Virus record (IMG/VR): IMGVR_UViG_3300028837_003833
Span: 113,910 to 135,493 of that record
Direction: 5' to 3' (one strand)
Origin: a virus
Length of the DNA: 21,584 nucleotides
The notes beneath the pieces were generated by a model. The model had not been told where the DNA came from and did not search any database. It saw nothing but the letters and a program-made list of their open reading frames with translations. Of the stretch, positions 894 to 16,587 are shown one piece after another. The position numbers and the translations under genes were made by a program. Numbering within the stretch: position 1 is the first letter of the stretch; each line of letters begins with the position of its first letter.

Positions 894-1091
894 ATGCCAG
901 ATCCTAATAAATTCTCGGATAAGCAAGATTTTATGGATGCATGTATGCACCAGGTAGTTAAAGTTGAGGGAAAATCTCAACCACAAGGCGTTGCCCAGTG
1001 TATAGGAATGTGGGAGAGTCGTAGTAAAAAGAAGAAAAAGTGTGCTTCAGATCTTATTAGGGAAACATCAGAAAAATTACTTGAAATATGA
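894..1091 (+). CDS. Small phage protein with helical 'F..CM...A.C...W' domain
   Basis: The ATG at 894 has an SD (GGAG-6 nt) and the ATG at 882 does not. MPDP...QDFMDACM...EGKSQPQGVAQCIGMW resembles a small domain often attached to phage head-maturation proteins. ATGA overlap with the next gene. Confidence 0.6.
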   Translation: MPDPNKFSDKQDFMDACMHQVVKVEGKSQPQGVAQCIGMWESRSKKKKKCASDLIRETSEKLLEI

Positions 1092-2386
1092 TTCGATCAA
1101 TTACATCAGCATTATCTAAAAAGGAGATAATTGAAGCTCCTAAATCAGGGATACCTGTTGTTTTTCTTGGGGGGAGTTGTAAGGATAATGATTGGCGTAA
1201 AGAGATTGAGGATGAGTTTGGAGAAGATTTATTTCTATTAGATCCTTTTGATAAAAAATATGATCCGGAGACAAATACACATAAAGAGTTAGCTGGTATA
1301 GTAAATTCAGATTATGTTATTTTTTATAGGGGTGGTGAACAATCTGCTCGGGAGAAAGAATTTCTTGATCTTATAGGTAGAAGAGATAATCTTATTAAGA
1401 CTTTTAGTACCATTAAAGATCTAAAAAAGTTTTTAAATAAAATAAGGAAGATTAAATTGGAAGATATAGGATCAAAAATAAGAAAATGTGCGGAGGATCT
1501 TTTAAAAGAATCTGTACCTTATTTAGATACTCCTATGGTAAAAGGAGATTATTCTGGTATTGATCTTCGTTTTGAAAAGCTCGATATTGATTCTATTTAT
1601 AAAGTGGTACAAGATATTTTAAATGGTGAGACTATTAAGATACCTAAGTTCCGGAATAATACTACTATTTTACAGGAATTTAATATAAATGATCTTGGTC
1701 AAGATAAAAAAATACTTGATTTTTTAAGACTCTACACTAAGGATAAAATAGAAAAACAATATAGAAATCGTGATCCTGAGTCTATTCTTTTTACTTATAA
1801 CGATAGGACTAATACATATAAAGATATAAGAGTTAATAAGCCTGAGTTAGCGATGGCTCGTGTAGCTAAAAAGGGTGCTACTTATAGTAGGTCTTGTGTT
1901 ATGATTAATCTTCCTGAGAACCTTTCTAAAGAGATAATGGAATGGGGAAGAAAAAATGTACAAGATGATAAGCTCTATACTGAAGAAGATTCTCAAGGTA
2001 GAGAAGATACTATACATGTTACATTGTTTTATGGAATAACAAGTAATGATCCGGATAAAACAGCTAAACTACTTTCAAAGGTCAAACCTTTTGAAATAAG
2101 ATTAGGGCTCATAAATGCTTTTAAGAATGATAATAACTATGATGTTCTTAAAATAGAGGTAGAATCTTCTGAATTAGAGAAACTTCATTATGAGATTTCT
2201 GATAAAATTGAAAATACTAATGATTTTGCTACTTATGAGCCTCATGTAACGATTCTTTATGCTAAAAAAGATTCTATAAATAATCTTATAGGTGATGAAT
2301 CCTTTAAGGGAAAAATTTTTAAATCTGATGATATAGTGTTTTCTGGTAGTGACAAGAATGAAACCAAGTTAAATCTTGGTAAATAA
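1088..2386 (+). CDS. Fusion: nucleoside 2-deoxyribosyltransferase-like domain + unknown middle domain + 2H phosphoesterase (T4 57B/Acb1-like)
   Basis: N-terminal VFLGGSC..DWR...LDPF...E....SDYVIFY...S..E fits the Nuc_deoxyri_tr2/NDT-like pattern. The C-terminal domain has two HxT motifs (HVTLFYG at 2015; PHVTILY at 2243) with YDVLKIEV between them, typical of phage 2H phosphoesterases. Confidence 0.8.
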   Translation: MIRSITSALSKKEIIEAPKSGIPVVFLGGSCKDNDWRKEIEDEFGEDLFLLDPFDKKYDPETNTHKELAGIVNSDYVIFYRGGEQSAREKEFLDLIGRRDNLIKTFSTIKDLKKFLNKIRKIKLEDIGSKIRKCAEDLLKESVPYLDTPMVKGDYSGIDLRFEKLDIDSIYKVVQDILNGETIKIPKFRNNTTILQEFNINDLGQDKKILDFLRLYTKDKIEKQYRNRDPESILFTYNDRTNTYKDIRVNKPELAMARVAKKGATYSRSCVMINLPENLSKEIMEWGRKNVQDDKLYTEEDSQGREDTIHVTLFYGITSNDPDKTAKLLSKVKPFEIRLGLINAFKNDNNYDVLKIEVESSELEKLHYEISDKIENTNDFATYEPHVTILYAKKDSINNLIGDESFKGKIFKSDDIVFSGSDKNETKLNLGK

Positions 2387-7276: not shown

Positions 7277-8368
7277 TTAAACTTTATCCCAAAGATCTTT
7301 TAATATAGACTTATCTTTCTTATTAGGACTAAAACTTACCTCTAAATTATTCTCATAATCATTTAAAAGTAGCTGTCGTACCTGCCTTCTACAAGCACTC
7401 TCATCTTGGGGCTGTGTCTTGAATCTATCTATAAACTTATCCCTCTTATCCATAGGAGAAGTACTTAATAGATACTCCCTAAATTCATACCAAGTCTTAA
7501 ATTTTTCAGGTAATTTACTAGTACTAAAAACACTATCCTCACCCGCGTATATAGACGCGACATGAATACCAGATATTCTTTTTACCAGCTTACTAAATGT
7601 ATCAGGCTCATATACTTGAAGATCACCTAAAATCTTGAAACTCTTCTCGTGTATAAGATTACTCACCCGCATAGTCTTATAAAAATTTTTATTTGATCGA
7701 TACATCTTATCATACACGGCATTATAGGGAAGATCATTATCCGCTATGTATTTCCAAACGTCTCCTACTCCCCAATCATAAAGAGGATAAAATCTATAAG
7801 TATTTCTACCTGTAGTTTTGGTACTCCAATTAATATCCTTCCACCCTGGATTCTTGATAACTGACCTAAGCCTGTTTAAACTCTCCTCCGCCCGTAACCC
7901 TATAAAAAATGCTGTGTCAGGATTACTCTTCTCCATCCATTTAAAAAAACCATAAAACCTACTTGGATAACTAATGTCAATTGAATGTATAGCCAAAGGA
8001 TCCTTATCCCTTACCCAAATCTCCCCCTCATCCCAAGCATAAAACATACACTCTCTATAAGATGTAGTGTTAGTCATATACAATGGAACCTGATACCACA
8101 AAGGATCTACAAGATCATGACTCATCATTCTTCTTATAAGATCTACACTACTTTGATATTCAGCCTCTTGATCAAGAAAAAATACTTTTACTCTCCTATT
8201 TCTTCTTTCCGCTTCCCTTACAACAAGCCAATACAATGTTGTACTATCTTTACCACTACTAATAGAAACTATGATATCTTTAAAACTATCAAATACTATC
8301 GAAACCCTCTCCTGAGCTTTATGGAATACATTTTCTTCAAGGTATACCCGTTTAAGTTCTGGTAGCAT
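7277..8368 (-). CDS. ibrA: IbrA-like PAPS-reductase family (PP-loop) protein with DUF3440-like C-terminus
   Basis: VSISSGKDS PP-loop; FFLDQEAEY; IGLRAEESLNR; FYPLYDW...DVW; YNAVYDKMY; MRVS; EPDTFSKL..RI.G; LPEKFKTWYEF..YLL. Confidence 0.9.
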   Translation of the reverse strand: MLPELKRVYLEENVFHKAQERVSIVFDSFKDIIVSISSGKDSTTLYWLVVREAERRNRRVKVFFLDQEAEYQSSVDLIRRMMSHDLVDPLWYQVPLYMTNTTSYRECMFYAWDEGEIWVRDKDPLAIHSIDISYPSRFYGFFKWMEKSNPDTAFFIGLRAEESLNRLRSVIKNPGWKDINWSTKTTGRNTYRFYPLYDWGVGDVWKYIADNDLPYNAVYDKMYRSNKNFYKTMRVSNLIHEKSFKILGDLQVYEPDTFSKLVKRISGIHVASIYAGEDSVFSTSKLPEKFKTWYEFREYLLSTSPMDKRDKFIDRFKTQPQDESACRRQVRQLLLNDYENNLEVSFSPNKKDKSILKDLWDKV

Positions 8369-9194
8369 CCAGTAAAGTCCTTACAAACTCATTTACATTA
8401 TTTATATATTTGAAAAATTCCTTCTCTAATAAATCATCCACTTTTGCATCAGACACTACTAATGTCCGCTCACCAGATTTATATTGATCATATACTCTAA
8501 AAAGGTATGAAGAATTAAATCCTTTTTTAAGATCCGGTACCCTATCATTAATAAATTTTTTCAATTTTCTGGTTAAAATAATAGGGCTACCCTCTGTCTC
8601 AAATAACTGCTCCTTATATACCTGATAATCCTTTTTTATCTCTTCGGATAATTCTATTCTTTTCACGATAATATCATCATGAAATACCTCCTGCAGAGAA
8701 GTATCAGTAGCTACTGCCACTTTCTTAGCAAGCATGGAACAATCATATGGATTTACGTCCCCAATAACTTTAGCCCCCTGAAAAGCATAACAATGGGGAT
8801 ACCCTAATAAACTTTTATCAAAAAAACTCCAGAGAAAATAACACCAATAAACATCCCTTTTTGTTAAAAAAGGATGCTCCTCAACTACTAATTTATACCC
8901 CTTAAGAACAGTTTGATGCATATCAATGTTACGGTCCATTATATCGTTTAATCTAGGGTACTTTAATACAAAAAAATCATTTTCTGAGTTATCCATAAAC
9001 ATTGGTATATTTACAGGATCCATAGTTTTTTCTAAAGGTAAAAAAGTATAGTCAGGTAAACTATCTTTTATAATATCTATATTAGGGCACTTTTTACCAT
9101 AAACATAAAATTTACGTCCATAACCCTCGGAATACTTATTAATCTTATCAAGTTCATAGTTAAGATCGTCAGTTAAGATTACCCTACCCTTCAC
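8352..9194 (-). CDS. Hypothetical protein, probable degenerate SNF2-like ATPase lobe
   Basis: GTG at 9194 has SD GGGAGG-6 nt and overlaps the IbrB stop by 11 nt. YKLVVEEHPF...LWSFFDKSLLGYPHCYAF and IELSEEIKKDY..YKEQL resemble the SNF2 motif-III region and the helices after it; no Walker A or DEAH. Confidence 0.55.
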   Translation of the reverse strand: MKGRVILTDDLNYELDKINKYSEGYGRKFYVYGKKCPNIDIIKDSLPDYTFLPLEKTMDPVNIPMFMDNSENDFFVLKYPRLNDIMDRNIDMHQTVLKGYKLVVEEHPFLTKRDVYWCYFLWSFFDKSLLGYPHCYAFQGAKVIGDVNPYDCSMLAKKVAVATDTSLQEVFHDDIIVKRIELSEEIKKDYQVYKEQLFETEGSPIILTRKLKKFINDRVPDLKKGFNSSYLFRVYDQYKSGERTLVVSDAKVDDLLEKEFFKYINNVNEFVRTLLDATRT

Positions 9195-10836
9195 TATATA
9201 CCTCCCAGGATTTACTATACTCATTATTAGCCAATATTTTTGCACAACCAATTTGCTGACGTAATCTTAACAACTCTTCACCTTCCATACCTAAATGATT
9301 GGCTATTTGTTCATCTGACCAGCCTTGCTCATATAGATCTTTAACAATAACCCCCATCAAATCCACCTGATGCCTTCCACGAGCTCTGTTATGACGAATA
9401 GTCGAAGCCATTCTATCTTTTATGGATTTATCAAGAACAACAACAGGAACTTTACTACATTTAAAATGATTTATCAATACAGTATACCTGTGAAAGCCAT
9501 CAATGACTATAAATTTATCCTGCTCAGGATCATGATAAACTACTATAGGCTGGGTAACACCATCTTCTTCTATGCTGTGTATAAGTAATTCCATTTCAGG
9601 AGCTGCTACTTTATTAGGATTATACCCATTACTTTGCACCTTAGATGCATCTACTAACTTTACAGACATACAAGGGAATTTTAATGAATCCACCATAACA
9701 CGCTTTCTCTTAGGCTCAATACCTAATGACCTACGTATACCCGCTATAGTATTTCTCCCAAAGCCGTACTTTTCACCAATTTCTACATCTGTCATACCAC
9801 TCTTAAAATGCTCCTTAAGAACATCCTCCAGGGGCATTTTCCTAATATTTATCTTTGTCTTTAAACTACCTTCTTTTAATTTATTTTTTATTCCTTCTAT
9901 GTATAATTCTTTAGAATCTTTTATCGGGCACCCCAAATTTACTCTGTCTTCAACAAAAGAATCCCCCGAAAATCTTACTGGTATCTTAAGTTTATTACAT
10001 AAATCCAAATGATATGATACAATATCTTTTACTGTATACCTATCAGGAACCTTATCCCCAGTAATTTTATATCTCATGGAAGGTATTATATAAGGATCTA
10101 TAAGGTTGTAAAAATGATCCCTACTCTCAGACTTAATGTAGATATTATAATAACCCTTTTTTATATCATGATTCTGCAGTGTAGTCTTCAAACTAAATTT
10201 ATTTTCCAAAGTATCTCGTAAATTATTTCCCTCTTCTTTTGTAACATTTCCTACGCATAAGTATGCCCCATATTCACTGTACTTTCCATCATCCATATAC
10301 CAAAAAGCTAATCCTTCAGGATCTATATCCGCTATTATATCCTCAAACATATATTTCTTATGCTTACCATGAGAATAAAATCTCTCAAAGTATGGGATAA
10401 GATTGTCATGTCTATTTGTGTATACTTCAATGGCATTAACCTCTTTTTTGTAGTGGATGGAAGAAACATAAGAGTCTAAGCATTCCGCAATGTGGTAAGT
10501 ATATGGTAACTGACCCATACCATGTGTTACTCGGTAGTATTTTGGTTCCGACATACTAGCATCCCCTAATAATGTCCCAATAAGCATCTGGTGCATATGA
10601 GAAGATATAATAGGATTACTAATGCGGGTGTCGTTAAGTGGGGCCCTATAAACTATACCTAGGCACTTAATAATATGCTCTAATTGGTAGGACTTCAGAC
10701 CATAAGCGATACTAAGATCTTTAATAGTTAAGGTACCGCTTATAAGATGAGTCTTTATCTCTTCCTTAGAAAAAGTCCCATACTTATTATGAAGTATAAG
10801 ATCGGTACCTTTTTTTTCAGTAAAAAATGAGGGCAT
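9184..10836 (-). CDS. ibrB: HTH + LAGLIDADG endonuclease + HTH + IbrB (ParB/Srx-like) fusion
   Basis: Start moved to ATG 10836 (AGGA SD; the listed start runs through the terminator). LIGTLLGDAS and LAFWYMDDG...YIIPSMRYKI (LAGLIDADG_2 type, about 10063-10600); HTH GMTDVEIGEKYGFGRNTIAGIRRSLGI; IbrB from 9696: NGYNPNKVAAPEMELL..SIEEDG.TQPIV, IDGFHRY, RMASTIRHNRARG, GWSDEQIA..LGM. Confidence 0.88.
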   Translation of the reverse strand: MPSFFTEKKGTDLILHNKYGTFSKEEIKTHLISGTLTIKDLSIAYGLKSYQLEHIIKCLGIVYRAPLNDTRISNPIISSHMHQMLIGTLLGDASMSEPKYYRVTHGMGQLPYTYHIAECLDSYVSSIHYKKEVNAIEVYTNRHDNLIPYFERFYSHGKHKKYMFEDIIADIDPEGLAFWYMDDGKYSEYGAYLCVGNVTKEEGNNLRDTLENKFSLKTTLQNHDIKKGYYNIYIKSESRDHFYNLIDPYIIPSMRYKITGDKVPDRYTVKDIVSYHLDLCNKLKIPVRFSGDSFVEDRVNLGCPIKDSKELYIEGIKNKLKEGSLKTKINIRKMPLEDVLKEHFKSGMTDVEIGEKYGFGRNTIAGIRRSLGIEPKRKRVMVDSLKFPCMSVKLVDASKVQSNGYNPNKVAAPEMELLIHSIEEDGVTQPIVVYHDPEQDKFIVIDGFHRYTVLINHFKCSKVPVVVLDKSIKDRMASTIRHNRARGRHQVDLMGVIVKDLYEQGWSDEQIANHLGMEGEELLRLRQQIGCAKILANNEYSKSWEVYSEG

Positions 10837-10855
10837 TATTTTTATCCTATGCACT

Positions 10856-10895
10856 GTATATTGACAATATACTCTAATGCTTAAGACAATAACAA
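10856..10895 (-). promoter_or_regulatory. Candidate sigma70-like promoter with overlapping palindromic operator
   Basis: Minus strand TTGTTA-18 nt-TATATT; perfect inverted repeat GTATATTG-A-CAATATAC at 10856-10872 covering the -10 and start-site region. Confidence 0.45.
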
Positions 10896-10898
10896 TAT

Positions 10899-10936
10899 AA
10901 ATAAAAAGGGCATGTGTTTTAAAACACACGCCCTTT
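10899..10936 (-). terminator. Rho-independent terminator after the MCP gene
   Basis: Minus strand AAAGGGCGTGTGTT-TTAA-AACACATGCCCTTT followed by TTATTT. The single mismatch is a G-U pair on the minus-strand transcript. Confidence 0.85.
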
Positions 10937-10960
10937 AAAACCAACTAATTAAGATGCTAT

Positions 10961-11845
10961 TTAACGAGCAATCTTGACTCTGGTAATAGCGAGAGGATTG
11001 TGACATCCAATGCCGAGATTCTCGAACACTGAGAACCCTATACGTCTTGCTTTAGGATCATCAGCACTAAGAACAGTTAATTCAGTTCTTACAGGGATAC
11101 GACCAAAGAACTCTGGCTCTGCACAAACATATGCATATCCAGGAGAAACTTTTCTGCTAACGATGAATTGAGCACCCCAAGCAGTAGCAAGAAGACCACT
11201 CTTGAGCAATGTTCCCTGAGTCTCGATATCAAGAACATCACGTCCCCATTTCCTGATGTCTGCGAAATCCAGAGCATTCATGAAAACACGAGCAACACGA
11301 AGATCATGAGTCTCAATACGTGCGAAAGCATCAATAAGATTTGAAGGTGTAAGAGGAGCAACAGCATTAACCTGTGCGTTAACGTATGCGCTTCCTAAGT
11401 TATCAAAACCAAACTGAGAAACAGCATCCATAACATCAAATGCACGTGCATCTTCAGCAGCTTGAATCTGTGCTTTTGCAAGATCTTGTGCTCTCTCAAT
11501 GAGGTCAAAACGACGCTCTTTGATCTGAGTCAATGGAAGTTCAGGGTTTGATGCAATTTCGAAAAGAGGGAAAATCACACGGCGAGGTTTTGTGATCGCC
11601 AAAATGTTTTCACCTTCTTCGCCAACAACAAAAGCTGTCACATTTGGGTCTTTGTCGTAAATTGGCAGCGCACCATCAGGGAGCTGTTCTACGAGGAAAG
11701 CCTTACGTGCAACAGATGTATAATCTCTACGAAGACGTAGAGGCTGAATCATTGAAGCAGCAAGCTTCGCACGACCAGCAGCAGTTTTGATGTACTCACC
11801 AATGATCTGTTGTTTCAGTTCATTGGAAATAGTTCCATTCTCCAT
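10961..11845 (-). CDS. Major capsid protein (HK97 fold, Bxz1/encapsulin-like family)
   Basis: LAASMIQPLRLRRDY..VARK..LVEQLPDGALPIYD, RRVIFPLFEIASNP, IERAQD...IQAAED, GFSVFENLGIG..NP; strong SD AGGAGG; last gene of the head module; no delta domain. Confidence 0.92.
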   Translation of the reverse strand: MENGTISNELKQQIIGEYIKTAAGRAKLAASMIQPLRLRRDYTSVARKAFLVEQLPDGALPIYDKDPNVTAFVVGEEGENILAITKPRRVIFPLFEIASNPELPLTQIKERRFDLIERAQDLAKAQIQAAEDARAFDVMDAVSQFGFDNLGSAYVNAQVNAVAPLTPSNLIDAFARIETHDLRVARVFMNALDFADIRKWGRDVLDIETQGTLLKSGLLATAWGAQFIVSRKVSPGYAYVCAEPEFFGRIPVRTELTVLSADDPKARRIGFSVFENLGIGCHNPLAITRVKIAR

Positions 11846-12617: not shown

Positions 12618-13607
12618 TTAATTGAAAACGTCTTTTACATCTGGAGCTGAAGACCAAAGATTTGAGAGTTCACCAGTACCGCTTGTAGAAGCTTCTTTCT
12701 TAACCATACCTTTAAGACTTGATGCACCCTTCTTAACTGGAGAAGGCATGACACCAATAAAAATCTGATCAAGAAGACTTGCGTCAGAAGCTTCAACTTC
12801 TGACGCTTCTTTATCATCTTTTTCGTCATCCTTTTTGTCATCCTCTTTATCATCCTCACCACCATCATCAGAAGCTGACTTAATTTGAGCTTCAAGCTCT
12901 TCAGCTTGTTTTTTAAGAGCAGCAAGTTTTTCTTGAGGAGTAGGTTCTACTGCAGCTTCTTTTTCATCTTCTTTTTCATCTTTTTTTTCATCTTCATCAT
13001 CTGCAGCAGCTTTTTCCTCTACTGCAGCTTCTTTTCCTTCTTCATTTTCTTCATCTTTTTCATCTTCATCATCTGCAGCAGCTTTTTCCTCTACTGCAGC
13101 TTCTTTTCCTTCTTCATCTTTTTCATCTTCAGAAGAATCAGCAGCAGCTTTTGCAATCATTTTTGCAAGACCTTCTTGATTAGCAAGAGTTGCGTTAAGA
13201 CCGTCTTCAGGGAGATGCATCAGAATACCAGCCTGCTTCTCGATAATTTCATCGGTAGCACCAGGAAGCATTCTCTGTGAAGCAATGATAGCTTTAACAG
13301 CTTTTTCTTCAAGTCGACGAGCATTTGCAATAGCTTCAGTAGCAGCATGCTTATCGATAAGAGGTGCATGTCCTGTATCTTCACGTTTCTGATCATCTTT
13401 TGCAGGATTACCCTTATGAACATCCTCTGCCCATGCTGAAGGATCACCCTTTGCATACTCACTGACACTTGGATCATTTTTCTCATGTCCGGTATCATTC
13501 ATGTTATAAACATCATTATCAATACCAGAACCTTTATCCTCTACTTGTGTACCAGGCTTTGATTTCATATCAGCAGCCGTTCTGTTAGTTAATCGAATAC
13601 GAGACAT
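12618..13607 (-). CDS. Capsid scaffolding protein
   Basis: Highly acidic, helical, low complexity; lies between protease and decoration/MCP; ordered C-terminal LSNLWSSAPDVKDVFN; SD AGGAGG; many KxA motifs. Confidence 0.75.
   Translation of the reverse strand: MSRIRLTNRTAADMKSKPGTQVEDKGSGIDNDVYNMNDTGHEKNDPSVSEYAKGDPSAWAEDVHKGNPAKDDQKREDTGHAPLIDKHAATEAIANARRLEEKAVKAIIASQRMLPGATDEIIEKQAGILMHLPEDGLNATLANQEGLAKMIAKAAADSSEDEKDEEGKEAAVEEKAAADDEDEKDEENEEGKEAAVEEKAAADDEDEKKDEKEDEKEAAVEPTPQEKLAALKKQAEELEAQIKSASDDGGEDDKEDDKKDDEKDDKEASEVEASDASLLDQIFIGVMPSPVKKGASSLKGMVKKEASTSGTGELSNLWSSAPDVKDVFN
12984..13117 (-). repeat. 62-bp exact direct repeat (72-bp period) in the scaffold gene
   Basis: 12984-13045 is identical to 13056-13117; encodes EEGKEAAVEEKAAADDEDEK twice. 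Confidence 0.9.
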
Positions 13608-13707: not shown

Positions 13708-16587
13708 TTATTCAAAGTGTGATAAAATCTTAGCCCATGAAGCTAACTTTTTATTTTCGTAACGACTCGGTTTACGCCCTATTTCCACAATGATATCAGT
13801 AAAAAAAGGCACCATACCTCTTGATCCAATTTTGACTCTTGATAATGTTTTAACTGCATCTACACCCACTGGATTATTTGAAGTACTTTTATCAATAAAA
13901 TGCAAAATCCCTAAAACATCATCACGATTATAGCCATATTTTTTAAACTGATTCCAATTTTTTATACTAGAAAGAATCATAAGACCATTATATAAACGAT
14001 CGTTCTTTATGCTCTTTGCTGAGGCTAAAACTTTATTAAAACTAGCAGATTTAGCTACTAAATTATCATTAGTAGAAGTCTCAAGTTCACTTGGTCGCTG
14101 ACTATCTTCACCTTGTTGTTTAGCTTGCTCCTTCAAGATCTCTCTTCGGATTTGATTTAAAAGTTGCCTCTTTACCATATCTTTAACTTCTGTGACAGTA
14201 GCATCCTCTTTTGGTTCCTCTATCTGAGGCTCTGGAGGAGCTGCAGGAGCACCATCCAAACTACCGCCACCTTCTGCCGGAGGTGCTGCACCTTCTGCTG
14301 GAGGAGCACCTAAGGAATCAGCAGGAGCCTCTCCCTCTGTAGGAGGAGTATCTACTTCAAGAGGTTTATCAGATTCAGGAGGAGCTTCTGGAAAACTAAA
14401 ATCATCTTTTGGAGGTTCAGCAGGAGGAGCATCACCTTCAGCAGCTTCAATCTCATTTACCAATTCTGTTGCAGCTTTTAATGCTGCAGACTTTAGATAC
14501 ATACCAGGCATATACTTAAAACCAGGCATAGCAACAGCCTTTTGAAATTTTTCAGAAAGATCTTTATCTCCAGTTGGTAAAACCTTATAGAGTACAGCTC
14601 CCTCAAAAGCAGGTTTACGCACCCAACTAGCATCTATGAACTTGCAACTATCAGGTTTATCAGAGCTACCACAGAGTTCAGCAATTATTCTTTTTACGCC
14701 ATTTTTATCATAGAAATAATTACCTTTAAAGTACTTTACATGTTTACAGGATTGTGACTCATCTTCTGCAATACGACCACACTGTGTGCATATTGAAAAT
14801 TGAATTAAACAACCCATACTGACAGCACTGTATTCCCCTGATTGAATCTTCTCCACTAAATCAGTATGCTTCTTGTTTGTAGCTATAAGAATATCAACAT
14901 ACATTGTAATAAGGTCTTCACCATTAATTCCTTTTGCAAAAGGCACTTCTCTTAACGCTACATCAATAATTTTTCCTTTTGATAATTCAGGGATCTGAAC
15001 ATGTTCACAGTTATGAACCACCACCCCTTCAGCTATGTATGAGTTATCATTATCTACTTCAATGTTATAAACTTCACAAGAGACATTACTTTCTTTCACC
15101 GAGTTTATCTTAGATACTATCCATTTTCCTTCTTCATTTTCAAAAGCATGGGTTATTTTCTTAGATTGTCTACTTGCTATTTTTATATCCCCATATCCAA
15201 CTATATCATTTAACTTTTTAGAATCTCTTGTTGAGAATCTCAATAAATAACCCGGTCTCGATTTTTTTCCTGTTAAAGGATCAGTAAATATTTCAAAACC
15301 ATCTGCTATCTCACAATCGGAATACCTTGGTAAGACCCCAACTTCCCTATATGTAGGAAGCATACCTAAACGCCAAGATACCCAATTAAACTGCTGTATG
15401 ATATCTTTTGATTTTAATTCTAAAGAATATCCCCTTGAAATGTACTCACCACACCCATCCCCATTAAGACAAGACTTAAGTATAATGGCTTGTAGCTTCT
15501 TTGGTAACCACATTGCTTCTTCAGGCATTTTTTTTGCCCAAGAATATTTACCGCACCATTTCTTAAAAAATTTAGCTATATCAGCATTACTAATAGAAAG
15601 CATATAAGATCCGGACTGGGACTCGTATATCCTTGGTAGACAATCCGCTCTAAATGTATCCCCAAATTCTTTAATTAATAGATCTTTAAGTCTTTCCGCC
15701 ACATCAATTTCATCATTACCAAGAGCAAAGGACACCCCAGATTCTTCATCTGAAGATTTATTTTTATTATCATAAAAACCTTCAGCAAGAAACCACCCTA
15801 TTAATTCTGCCCTATTCTCATTTATCTCACTGTTAGATATTTCTACAGCGGATACCGGGTGTGTGAAAAAATCCCTATCAGGATTTATACTATTAGCCTC
15901 TACCCAATTTGGGGTTAAGCCCTCTGGAAAAACCTCACCAGAAGATCTATGTACACCAACAGAAAAACCTGTCCAAGTATCTAATAAACAAAAATTTGCT
16001 TCTTTATCAAATAAATTAGGACGCCCTGTTTTTGGGCAAGTTTCACGGGCATGGTATATCCAAAAAGGATGTTCTTTAGTAACAAACATATTTCTTGATA
16101 GGATATTTAACCCAGACACCTCTACTAAGTTATTTGCTTTATGTCTAAATGTCTTTGTGACATTACCTATCTCACCTTTTCTATTTATTACCCTATCACC
16201 TTCTTTTATATCCTGAATAGGCTTATAGGTACCATCTGACATAAGTACACGGGTACCAGCAGCAAAACAAAAGTTATCTGCACCAAGAAAACTTTTTGAA
16301 GCTATCTTGAGAAGATTACGTTCCCAGCTATCACCATTATTATTTACAAAAATTGAGTAATCAGGTTTGATCAAATAGTTACTTTTAGGATTGGATGGAT
16401 CGGCTAAATCAGTATCTACTGATGCCATAATCGTGGTATGAGAAAGTAACCATTTTGAAGGATCAAACTGGGCTATTACTTCTTTTGCTACTTTTAAACG
16501 ACCTTTAGGAACAACATTGTCGACCCATTTACCTGGGCAGACAACCTTATTCACTACAGCAGCATGTCCAAACTTAAGCATTGCCAT
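13708..16587 (-). CDS. Prohead (maturation) protease precursor with intein
   Basis: Exteins: NNNGDSW...FLGADNF|CEH...KGKIID (His), KIQSGEYSAVSMGC (Ser), CTQC...CKH Zn site, ASWVRKPAF; then a Pro/Ala/Glu linker and a helical C-terminal domain. The spliced product is 539 aa. Confidence 0.88.
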   Translation of the reverse strand: MAMLKFGHAAVVNKVVCPGKWVDNVVPKGRLKVAKEVIAQFDPSKWLLSHTTIMASVDTDLADPSNPKSNYLIKPDYSIFVNNNGDSWERNLLKIASKSFLGADNFCFAAGTRVLMSDGTYKPIQDIKEGDRVINRKGEIGNVTKTFRHKANNLVEVSGLNILSRNMFVTKEHPFWIYHARETCPKTGRPNLFDKEANFCLLDTWTGFSVGVHRSSGEVFPEGLTPNWVEANSINPDRDFFTHPVSAVEISNSEINENRAELIGWFLAEGFYDNKNKSSDEESGVSFALGNDEIDVAERLKDLLIKEFGDTFRADCLPRIYESQSGSYMLSISNADIAKFFKKWCGKYSWAKKMPEEAMWLPKKLQAIILKSCLNGDGCGEYISRGYSLELKSKDIIQQFNWVSWRLGMLPTYREVGVLPRYSDCEIADGFEIFTDPLTGKKSRPGYLLRFSTRDSKKLNDIVGYGDIKIASRQSKKITHAFENEEGKWIVSKINSVKESNVSCEVYNIEVDNDNSYIAEGVVVHNCEHVQIPELSKGKIIDVALREVPFAKGINGEDLITMYVDILIATNKKHTDLVEKIQSGEYSAVSMGCLIQFSICTQCGRIAEDESQSCKHVKYFKGNYFYDKNGVKRIIAELCGSSDKPDSCKFIDASWVRKPAFEGAVLYKVLPTGDKDLSEKFQKAVAMPGFKYMPGMYLKSAALKAATELVNEIEAAEGDAPPAEPPKDDFSFPEAPPESDKPLEVDTPPTEGEAPADSLGAPPAEGAAPPAEGGGSLDGAPAAPPEPQIEEPKEDATVTEVKDMVKRQLLNQIRREILKEQAKQQGEDSQRPSELETSTNDNLVAKSASFNKVLASAKSIKNDRLYNGLMILSSIKNWNQFKKYGYNRDDVLGILHFIDKSTSNNPVGVDAVKTLSRVKIGSRGMVPFFTDIIVEIGRKPSRYENKKLASWAKILSHFE
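15010..16269 (-). mobile_element. Intein (420 aa) with LAGLIDADG homing endonuclease
   Basis: Block A CFAAGTRVLMSDG; block B VTKEHPF; block C LIGWFLAEG; block E SCLNGDG; blocks F/G VYNIEVDNDNSYIAEGVVVHN; +1 residue Cys. Confidence 0.95.

Follow-up and report, generated by a model that had tools for sequence, protein, structure and literature searches.

The fusion gene and its cassette

The DNA analysed, hereafter the window, is a stretch of 21,584 nucleotides (nt) of the virus record IMGVR_UViG_3300028837_003833 in IMG/VR (positions 113,910 to 135,493). The subject of this report is a gene lying behind the major capsid protein (MCP) gene, in which a LAGLIDADG nuclease with extra helix-turn-helix (HTH) domains and a complete IbrB are encoded as a single polypeptide. 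Since the source record is 135 kb in length and only 29% complete as estimated by CheckV, the virus should be a jumbo phage. The fusion gene, a gene for an orphan protein of 280 amino acids (aa), and the gene for IbrA form a three-gene cassette, which is headed by the fusion gene. The features of this locus are listed below (pLDDT, predicted local distance difference test).

10961..11845, minus strand: MCP gene, 294 aa (PHROG 2522 major head protein, E 3.9e-51), the anchor upstream of the cassette
10905..10936, minus strand: intrinsic-terminator-like hairpin with a 14-pair stem and a T run, which ends the capsid transcription unit; the cassette begins beyond it
10837..10895, minus strand: cassette leader, in which hexamers weakly resemble a promoter and a Shine-Dalgarno motif, AGGA, lies 12 nt ahead of the ATG
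9184..10836 including the stop, minus strand: LAGLIDADG-IbrB fusion gene, 550 aa (single open reading frame, Pfam domains, alignment)
10612..10836, minus strand (aa 1-75): HTH-like N-terminal domain of the nuclease module, built from three strands plus three helices (AlphaFold model, block-mean pLDDT 63-93)
10051..10611, minus strand (aa 76-262): I-SceI-type two-motif LAGLIDADG nuclease core (Pfam, phmmer, Foldseek)
9832..10050, minus strand (aa 263-335): helical linker region, the fastest-evolving part of the protein (substitution rates, model)
9697..9831, minus strand (aa 336-380): C-terminal HTH of the nuclease module, with conserved G347, D350 and G360-R361; the module genes of the split form stop right after it
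9187..9696, minus strand (aa 381-550): short variable linker and complete IbrB, composed of a ParB/Srx N-domain with a DGFHR motif, an RHNRARG segment and a C-terminal HTH
8352..9194, minus strand: orphan gene, 280 aa; its probable start, GTG 9194, is preceded by a GGAGG motif
7277..8368, minus strand: IbrA gene, 363 aa, the last gene of the cassette (PP-loop PAPS-reductase domain and DUF3440, Pfam 1.1e-15 and 1.6e-12; PHROG 2302, E 6.3e-84)

On translation, the fusion gene reads on the minus strand from ATG 10836 to the last codon at 9187, followed by a TAG stop at 9184-9186, as one open reading frame of 550 aa. The single frame proposed in a preliminary description of this DNA thus exists and holds no internal stop, but its strand has to be corrected to minus; the plus-strand reading of 9184-10836 is riddled with stops. 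The orphan gene overlaps the end of the fusion gene by 11 nt and is itself overlapped by the IbrA gene by 17 nt. The IbrA gene lies on the same strand as the fusion gene with only the overlapping orphan gene between them, and in this lineage the orphan gene always stands directly in front of IbrA.

All 16 related loci inspected likewise have a hairpin with a T run, of different sequence, behind the MCP stop. The leader, in the form ACAGTGCAT..AGGA, is common to the window and two related loci (L001 and L003), and is present in a looser form in a third (L005). Since the number of promoter-like matches within the leader was not above the shuffled expectation, the cassette promoter is given here as putative. 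Megablast of the locus against known phages gave no match, the fusion was not found in any INPHARED phage, and no account of a LAGLIDADG-IbrB fusion, nor any biochemical function for IbrAB, was found in the literature.

Anatomy and conservation of the fusion protein

The fusion polypeptide consists of two working units, the nuclease module of aa 1-380 and IbrB of aa ~385-550. The structure of the whole protein was modelled by AlphaFold on 19 homologues (mean pLDDT 80.6). For residue conservation, an alignment of 19 full-length fusions (46-71% identity) was used together with a separate set of 57 module sequences from all architectures.

The core of the first unit matches the Pfam family LAGLIDADG_2 (PF03161) at aa 83-242 with an E value of 7.5e-27 (94.8 bits, cut-off 25). 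The match spans positions 2-168 of the 168-position profile, and the fusion protein also matches a phage LAGLIDADG family in PHROGs. In the model, pLDDT exceeds 90 over most of the core. The best relatives in PDB by phmmer were I-WcaI (2.4e-13) and I-SceI (8e-11), and the same two were nearest to the core by Foldseek, with template-modelling scores of 0.69-0.72 and 26-27% identity. Each active site of LAGLIDADG enzymes pairs the acidic, metal-binding residue that is penultimate in its motif with a neighbouring basic residue (PMC3384342). The catalytic Asp is present in both motifs, D92 (codon 10563-10561) and D183 (codon 10290-10288): LLGDA pairs with LILGDA and WYMDDG with WFMDDG of I-SceI, so that D92 and D183 align with the Asp of its GDA and MDDG, and K161 and K257 align with its lysines. 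The two-motif LAGLIDADG_2 domain with both catalytic acids, as read in the preliminary description, was thus confirmed. With I-SceI and I-WcaI the phage core shares the fold, the family, the two motifs, the Asp pair, the two neighbouring lysines and a matching C-terminal PYIIPSMRYK segment. The two enzymes are, however, intron-encoded and organellar with a size of ~230 aa, whereas the phage core is free-standing and fused to an enzyme domain, with a beta/HTH domain on its N-terminal side and an HTH on its C-terminal side.

The HTH-like character of the N-terminus is seen only in the structure model, in which three strands and three helices are formed at aa 5-58; D12 and N17-K18-Y19-G20 are conserved in the 19-sequence alignment. 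Behind the core, a helical region extends over aa 256-322, followed by the second HTH with three helices at aa 337-370. Weak matches to GcrA, HTH_7, Sigma70_r4 and HTH_ParB were obtained for this second HTH in the fusion and its homologues. It had been correctly recognized before, but it belongs to the nuclease module and not to IbrB, because the module genes of the split form end after it. As predicted from sequence and model, the first unit is an I-SceI-type monomeric LAGLIDADG endonuclease with the full catalytic set and two flanking extra HTH DNA-binding domains.

A disordered linker in the model (aa 377-389) leads to a ParB-like domain. Here Pfam ParB_N matches aa 392-475 (30.8 bits against a cut-off of 26.3), and PHROG 2159, the IbrB-type ParB family, matches aa 377-547 with an E value of 6.1e-62. 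By tblastn, aa 371-546 align with essentially the whole of the annotated 170-aa IbrB of Streptococcus phage CHPC1230 at 50% identity, and by Foldseek the C-terminal part is nearest to the N-domains of ParB, Noc and KorB. The second unit is therefore a complete IbrB, as previously stated, that is, the ParB/Srx-fold partner of the PP-loop enzyme IbrA. With the IbrA/IbrB pairs of E. coli ECOR-9 and of many phages, such as CHPC1230 and Lactobacillus phage phiAQ113, the cassette shares a full-length IbrB, here ~50% identical to phage IbrB, and an IbrA with PAPS_reduct and DUF3440. It differs from them in the arrangement: usually IbrA is followed by IbrB, and IbrB is a stand-alone protein of ~170 aa or a cupin fusion of ~305 aa, whereas here the order is IbrB, orphan and IbrA, and IbrB bears a nuclease module of 380 aa.

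The orphan protein gave no match in Pfam, NCBIfam, PHROG or Atlas and no fold match in PDB, its AlphaFold model being poor (pLDDT 61). In phage phiAQ113 the position directly in front of IbrA is occupied by a small gene for a SNF2-domain protein. No SNF2 similarity was, however, detected in the orphan protein, with an hhalign probability of 0.2 against the SNF2 protein of phiAQ113 and the poor model on the orphan side.

An intein was considered and rejected, in agreement with the absence of splicing residues noted before: the fusion protein has no match to Hint or Intein_splicing profiles, and the module begins at residue 1, leaving no N-extein. The same profile library does detect inteins in two other proteins of the same genome.

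D92, K161, D183 and K257 are invariant in all 19 aligned fusions. In the 57-row set, D183 is found in every row and D92 in 55, the exceptions being one N-terminally truncated sequence and one with Asn. The GFGRN-type HTH and the DGFHR and RHNRARG motifs of IbrB are invariant or nearly so, with D446, G447, F448 and R450 invariant and H449 nearly so. WhiA/DUF199, in which a LAGLIDADG core is likewise tethered to an HTH, was among the structural matches by Foldseek. WhiA no longer has catalytic residues of either kind, acidic or basic (PMC3384342), whereas the present family keeps all four, which makes domestication for binding only unlikely; a WhiA-like non-catalytic role was thus rejected.

Because synonymous sites are saturated in most pairs, only nonsynonymous substitution rates (dN) were compared. 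Between the window and L001, dN is 0.159 for the nuclease core, 0.154 for IbrB, 0.158 for IbrA and 0.164 for the orphan gene, with the synonymous rate (dS) saturated, while the region of aa 263-335 gives 0.457. Since the dN of the core is about equal to those of IbrB and IbrA, the nuclease is as constrained as the enzymes, and the core is kept by purifying selection. The decaying nuclease that the preliminary description had allowed for is not what these rates describe.

Distribution of the module and the hot spot behind the capsid gene

Relatives were collected by a search of 5.8 billion proteins. About 20 clusters (P0002-P0021), from independent metagenomes among the JGI, ENA and Logan assemblies, carry the same two Pfam domains at full length, with 46-99% identity and ~546-560 aa, and one 99%-identical copy of the fusion lies on another contig. 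The recurrence of the architecture in ~20 independent clusters, together with the lack of an internal stop, indicates that the fusion is neither a chance product nor an assembly artefact, and the concern that it might be a one-off is removed. As to the additional start of IbrB at the internal ATG 9696, suspected earlier, no Shine-Dalgarno motif precedes this codon, although 17 of the 23 genes of the window have one, and the Met is not conserved in the 19-sequence alignment; this start was rejected.

In all the contexts fetched, the gene order is MCP, terminator, module, IbrB, orphan (~275-280 aa) and IbrA. A sister clade encodes the module (377-385 aa) in one gene and IbrB (169 aa) in the next, and the two overlap by ATGA exactly at the position of the fusion linker. 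From this arrangement, a frame change of one base would interconvert the split and fused forms. In the module tree, the IbrB-linked sequences form one group with a support of 95, in which the split forms make up a clade of 8 rows, while the other clade, with 28 rows, is mainly fused and deeply branched. The fusion is old and has been retained through deep divergence. The module also exists alone in forms of 298-305 aa, one of them on the opposite strand.

The same module (42-48% identical) is fused to other partners as well: to Mom (P0025, P0027, P0034, P0035, P0044, P0123 and P0265), to GNAT (P0124), to a methylase-like domain (P0127), and to an uncharacterized protein of 189 aa (P0122 and P0028), which in L050 is a separate gene coupled to the module by ATGA. 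IbrB, Mom and the 189-aa protein also occur as separate genes. A second LAGLIDADG_2 lineage, ~25% identical, is fused to the same Mom orthologue and also to N6/N4 DNA methylases (L046, L001 with 688 aa, P0132, P0140 and P0159). The Mom of a second-lineage fusion (L013) shares 77% identity with the Mom that stands alone in L007, and the Mom of the second-lineage fusion is 69% identical to that of the first-lineage fusion. The catalytic residues are kept in all these partner fusions of both lineages. Among the large LAGLIDADG_2 proteins scanned, the recognized non-intein partners are DNA-modification domains; the others are ordinary inteins in helicases, terminases and ligases, and two proteins have other regions matching no family. 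Since Mom, GNAT and methylases take the place of IbrB beside the same module, IbrAB is likely to act on DNA.

At the same hot spot, DUF7487 was found once fused to LAGLIDADG_2 and once to an RRXRR (HNH-type) nuclease (L052:3325-4803 and L049:9954-11831), and is another uncharacterized domain that pairs with nucleases.

The region behind the MCP gene was surveyed in 80 related loci with MCP 73-97% identical. Behind the MCP terminator, some of these loci are empty, and others hold one or two LAGLIDADG genes, TnpB genes, or modification cassettes; the LAGLIDADG genes belong to several lineages and are inserted in either orientation or as tandem copies. In L015, of which the MCP is 97% identical to that of the window, the cassette is absent and DNA homology to the window does not extend beyond the MCP stop codon. 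On the MCP tree, the 13 module carriers need at least 10 gains or losses, against an average of 11.9 for shuffled labels; the presence of the module is nearly random with respect to this tree. The loci L049 and L047 are collinear at 88-93% identity and differ solely by a 918-nt gene for a 305-aa version of the module, composed of the N-terminal domain and the core without the C-terminal HTH. This gene (L049:8872-9789) replaces an intergenic spacer of ~30 nt (L047:7894-7924), and the sequence TATGATCC..CTGAATAG follows the junction in both loci. A free-standing homing endonuclease gene behaves in just this way.

Four loci have an interrupted MCP gene, which is split into two tblastn pieces near codon 32 by an insert of ~1.1 kb (L020, L024 and L031) or ~350 nt (L025), which is probably an intron or intein. 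Several relatives carry TnpB/IS605 OrfB-type (Cas12f-like) genes close to the capsid region or the hot spot (L013:8104-9219, L009:1247-2614 and L007:12462-13158). In comparison of the window with L001, dS of the capsid gene is 0.63, while the adjacent cassette genes give 1.3-1.8 or are saturated (7277-11845). The low value for the capsid gene could reflect recombination or conversion of this gene, exchange of the cassette, or codon constraint.

Other selfish endonuclease elements in the genome are inteins in a 959-aa head protein and an SNF2 helicase.

13708-16587, minus strand: 959-aa head protein with an intein at ~aa 107-527 (Hom_end_hint, Intein_splicing; PHROG head-maturation-protease match in the C-terminal half)
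G000:C1:23492-27739 (L093:1993-6240), minus strand, same phage, outside the window: 1415-aa SNF2-family helicase with two inteins; the endonuclease of one is LAGLIDADG_3, that of the other LAGLIDADG_2

The intein of the head protein is absent from the homologues in L015 and L002, where the homology with the window skips ~1.26 kb. In a related phage (L041:9448-11817), an intein that contains a LAGLIDADG_3 endonuclease lies within IbrA itself (789 aa), and the cassette also holds GNAT, a distant orphan homologue, a DUF4379 zinc-finger protein and IbrB. Elsewhere in the window, a 432-aa protein (1088-2386, plus strand) carries a 2H-phosphoesterase or Acb1-like (anti-CBASS; CBASS, cyclic-oligonucleotide-based antiphage signalling system) domain at aa 301-396 and an N-terminus weakly similar to nucleoside 2-deoxyribosyltransferase, and is a candidate anti-defence gene. 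A 329-aa protein (12618-13607, minus strand), encoded between the head protease and decoration-like genes, has long acidic repeats rich in Glu, Asp and Lys and is probably a scaffolding protein; the strand opposite to 12618-13607 gives a spurious Phe/Ser-rich open reading frame.

Proposed cargo homing and alternative roles of the fusion

The preliminary description had left two explanations side by side, one a homing endonuclease fused to ibrB and able to mobilise the cassette into the site behind the capsid gene, and the other a domesticated restriction or specificity subunit. The observations fit best with the former, in view of the intact catalytic residues, the location in a LAGLIDADG-rich hot spot adjoining the lineage's most conserved gene, the near-random presence of the module and the single-gene difference between L049 and L047. 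We therefore regard the fusion as representing an active, selfish LAGLIDADG homing endonuclease at the head of a DNA-modification cassette, which it takes along as cargo and of which the first gene is welded to it, a reading for which we see about as much reason to accept as to doubt.

The fusion goes back to two translationally coupled genes with an ATGA overlap of stop and start, which were joined when the reading frame in the linker shifted by one base. In mixed infections, the nuclease would cut module-less relatives near the capsid gene, and repair from the genome of the carrier would copy the nuclease gene together with the downstream DNA-modification genes, that is, cargo homing. IbrB, with IbrA and the orphan protein, would act on DNA as a modification enzyme, and, through the fusion, the cargo would depend on the nuclease for being expressed and retained, and IbrB would be brought to DNA. 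T4-like phages carry free-standing homing endonuclease genes of the Seg and Mob groups, which perform intronless homing, encode GIY-YIG or HNH enzymes and are unfused to their neighbours. The LAGLIDADG genes described here share with them the intergenic insertion beside a highly conserved gene, the sporadic presence among close relatives, the clean presence or absence, and the stop/start overlaps. They differ from Seg and Mob in that the nuclease is of the LAGLIDADG type and forms one protein with the first cargo gene, its cleavage and homing being predicted properties.

Several points weigh against the homing endonuclease. No cleavage site or empty-site target was identified, and no MCP allele or 3'-end cluster splits carriers from non-carriers, the largest difference in frequency being 0.69 and scattered, in what is a weak test. 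On its far side the cassette is flanked by different DNA in different phages, and two-sided homology for homing of the whole cassette is therefore available only among close relatives. In all cassettes found of the IbrB-orphan-IbrA subtype, the module precedes IbrB, fused or ATGA-coupled, although a merely parasitic gene should sometimes be missing. Furthermore, the repeated independent fusions of two nuclease lineages to DNA-modification enzymes of four or five kinds suggest a functional tie beyond hitch-hiking.

In the second explanation, the LAGLIDADG module is a functional subunit, being the recognition and/or cutting arm of phage DNA-modification enzymes. The partner enzyme would be brought to defined DNA sites, or, in a restriction-modification-like manner, unmodified host or rival DNA would be cut while the partner protects the phage's own DNA. 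The constant association of the module with the IbrB-orphan-IbrA subtype agrees with such a role, as do the fusions of one ~380-aa module to IbrB, Mom, GNAT, a methylase-like domain and the 189-aa protein, the independent fusion of a second lineage to the same Mom and to N6/N4 methylases, the restriction of recognized non-intein partners to DNA-modification domains, the catalytic residues kept in all fusions, and a nuclease core evolving as slowly as the enzymes; the earlier proposal of a domesticated subunit gains support from these fusions, although it stands second to homing. Type IIG/IIC single-chain restriction-modification enzymes couple nuclease and DNA modification in one polypeptide or operon. 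The present fusions resemble these enzymes in the coupling of a nuclease to a DNA-modifying function, the likeness lying in the architecture and in the recurrent Mom, GNAT and methylase fusions, but the putative modification is here not methylation and needs IbrA. To our knowledge, no restriction enzyme with a LAGLIDADG nuclease has been reported.

On the other hand, the module also exists alone in forms of 298-305 aa, comes and goes as one gene between near-isogenic genomes, and is distributed nearly at random on the MCP tree. The IbrAB pairs of hundreds of other phages do without such a domain, and a recognition site of ~18-22 bp is ill-suited to protective modification of a whole genome. 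Moreover, the choice of fusion partners may be biased by location, because the hot spot is rich in modification genes anyway. Taken together, the functional subunit is a possible but rather unlikely explanation.

An extension of this idea is that the LAGLIDADG fusions to IbrB, Mom, GNAT and methylases constitute an undescribed phage class, which may be called 'cut-and-mark', joining a long-site nuclease of intact catalysis and a DNA-modifying enzyme as one unit. We put it forward tentatively, considering it unlikely as matters stand. Such a unit, if real, would destroy unmodified rival or host DNA or direct the modification to defined sites, and IbrAB would then be a DNA-modification enzyme.

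A neutral read-through fusion, in which the nuclease is a passenger on the way to decay and IbrB works regardless, could be produced, since ATGA-overlapping phage genes can fuse by a single indel, and the rapid evolution of the linker and of aa 263-335 is in line with it. It is difficult to reconcile, however, with the 28-row fused clade of deep branches, the invariant catalytic residues, the core dN equal to that of IbrB and IbrA, and the recurrence of fusions with several partners, and is judged improbable. That two proteins are really made, through an assembly frameshift or the internal start, is hardly credible: ATG 9696 happens to sit at the domain border in this phage, but it lacks a Shine-Dalgarno motif and a conserved Met, and the in-frame architecture recurs in the ~20 clusters of the JGI, ENA and Logan assemblies, including the 99%-identical copy on another contig.

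For homing endonucleases, the family provides a set of I-SceI-like enzymes with extra HTH domains and probably long recognition sites. If the module proves to be a functional subunit, it would represent the first LAGLIDADG-based restriction-modification-like system. For the IbrA/IbrB pair, which is common in phages and bacteria, the interchange of partners behind the same module provides comparative evidence that IbrB modifies DNA. For jumbo phages, anti-restriction modification genes may spread among them as cargo welded to a homing endonuclease.

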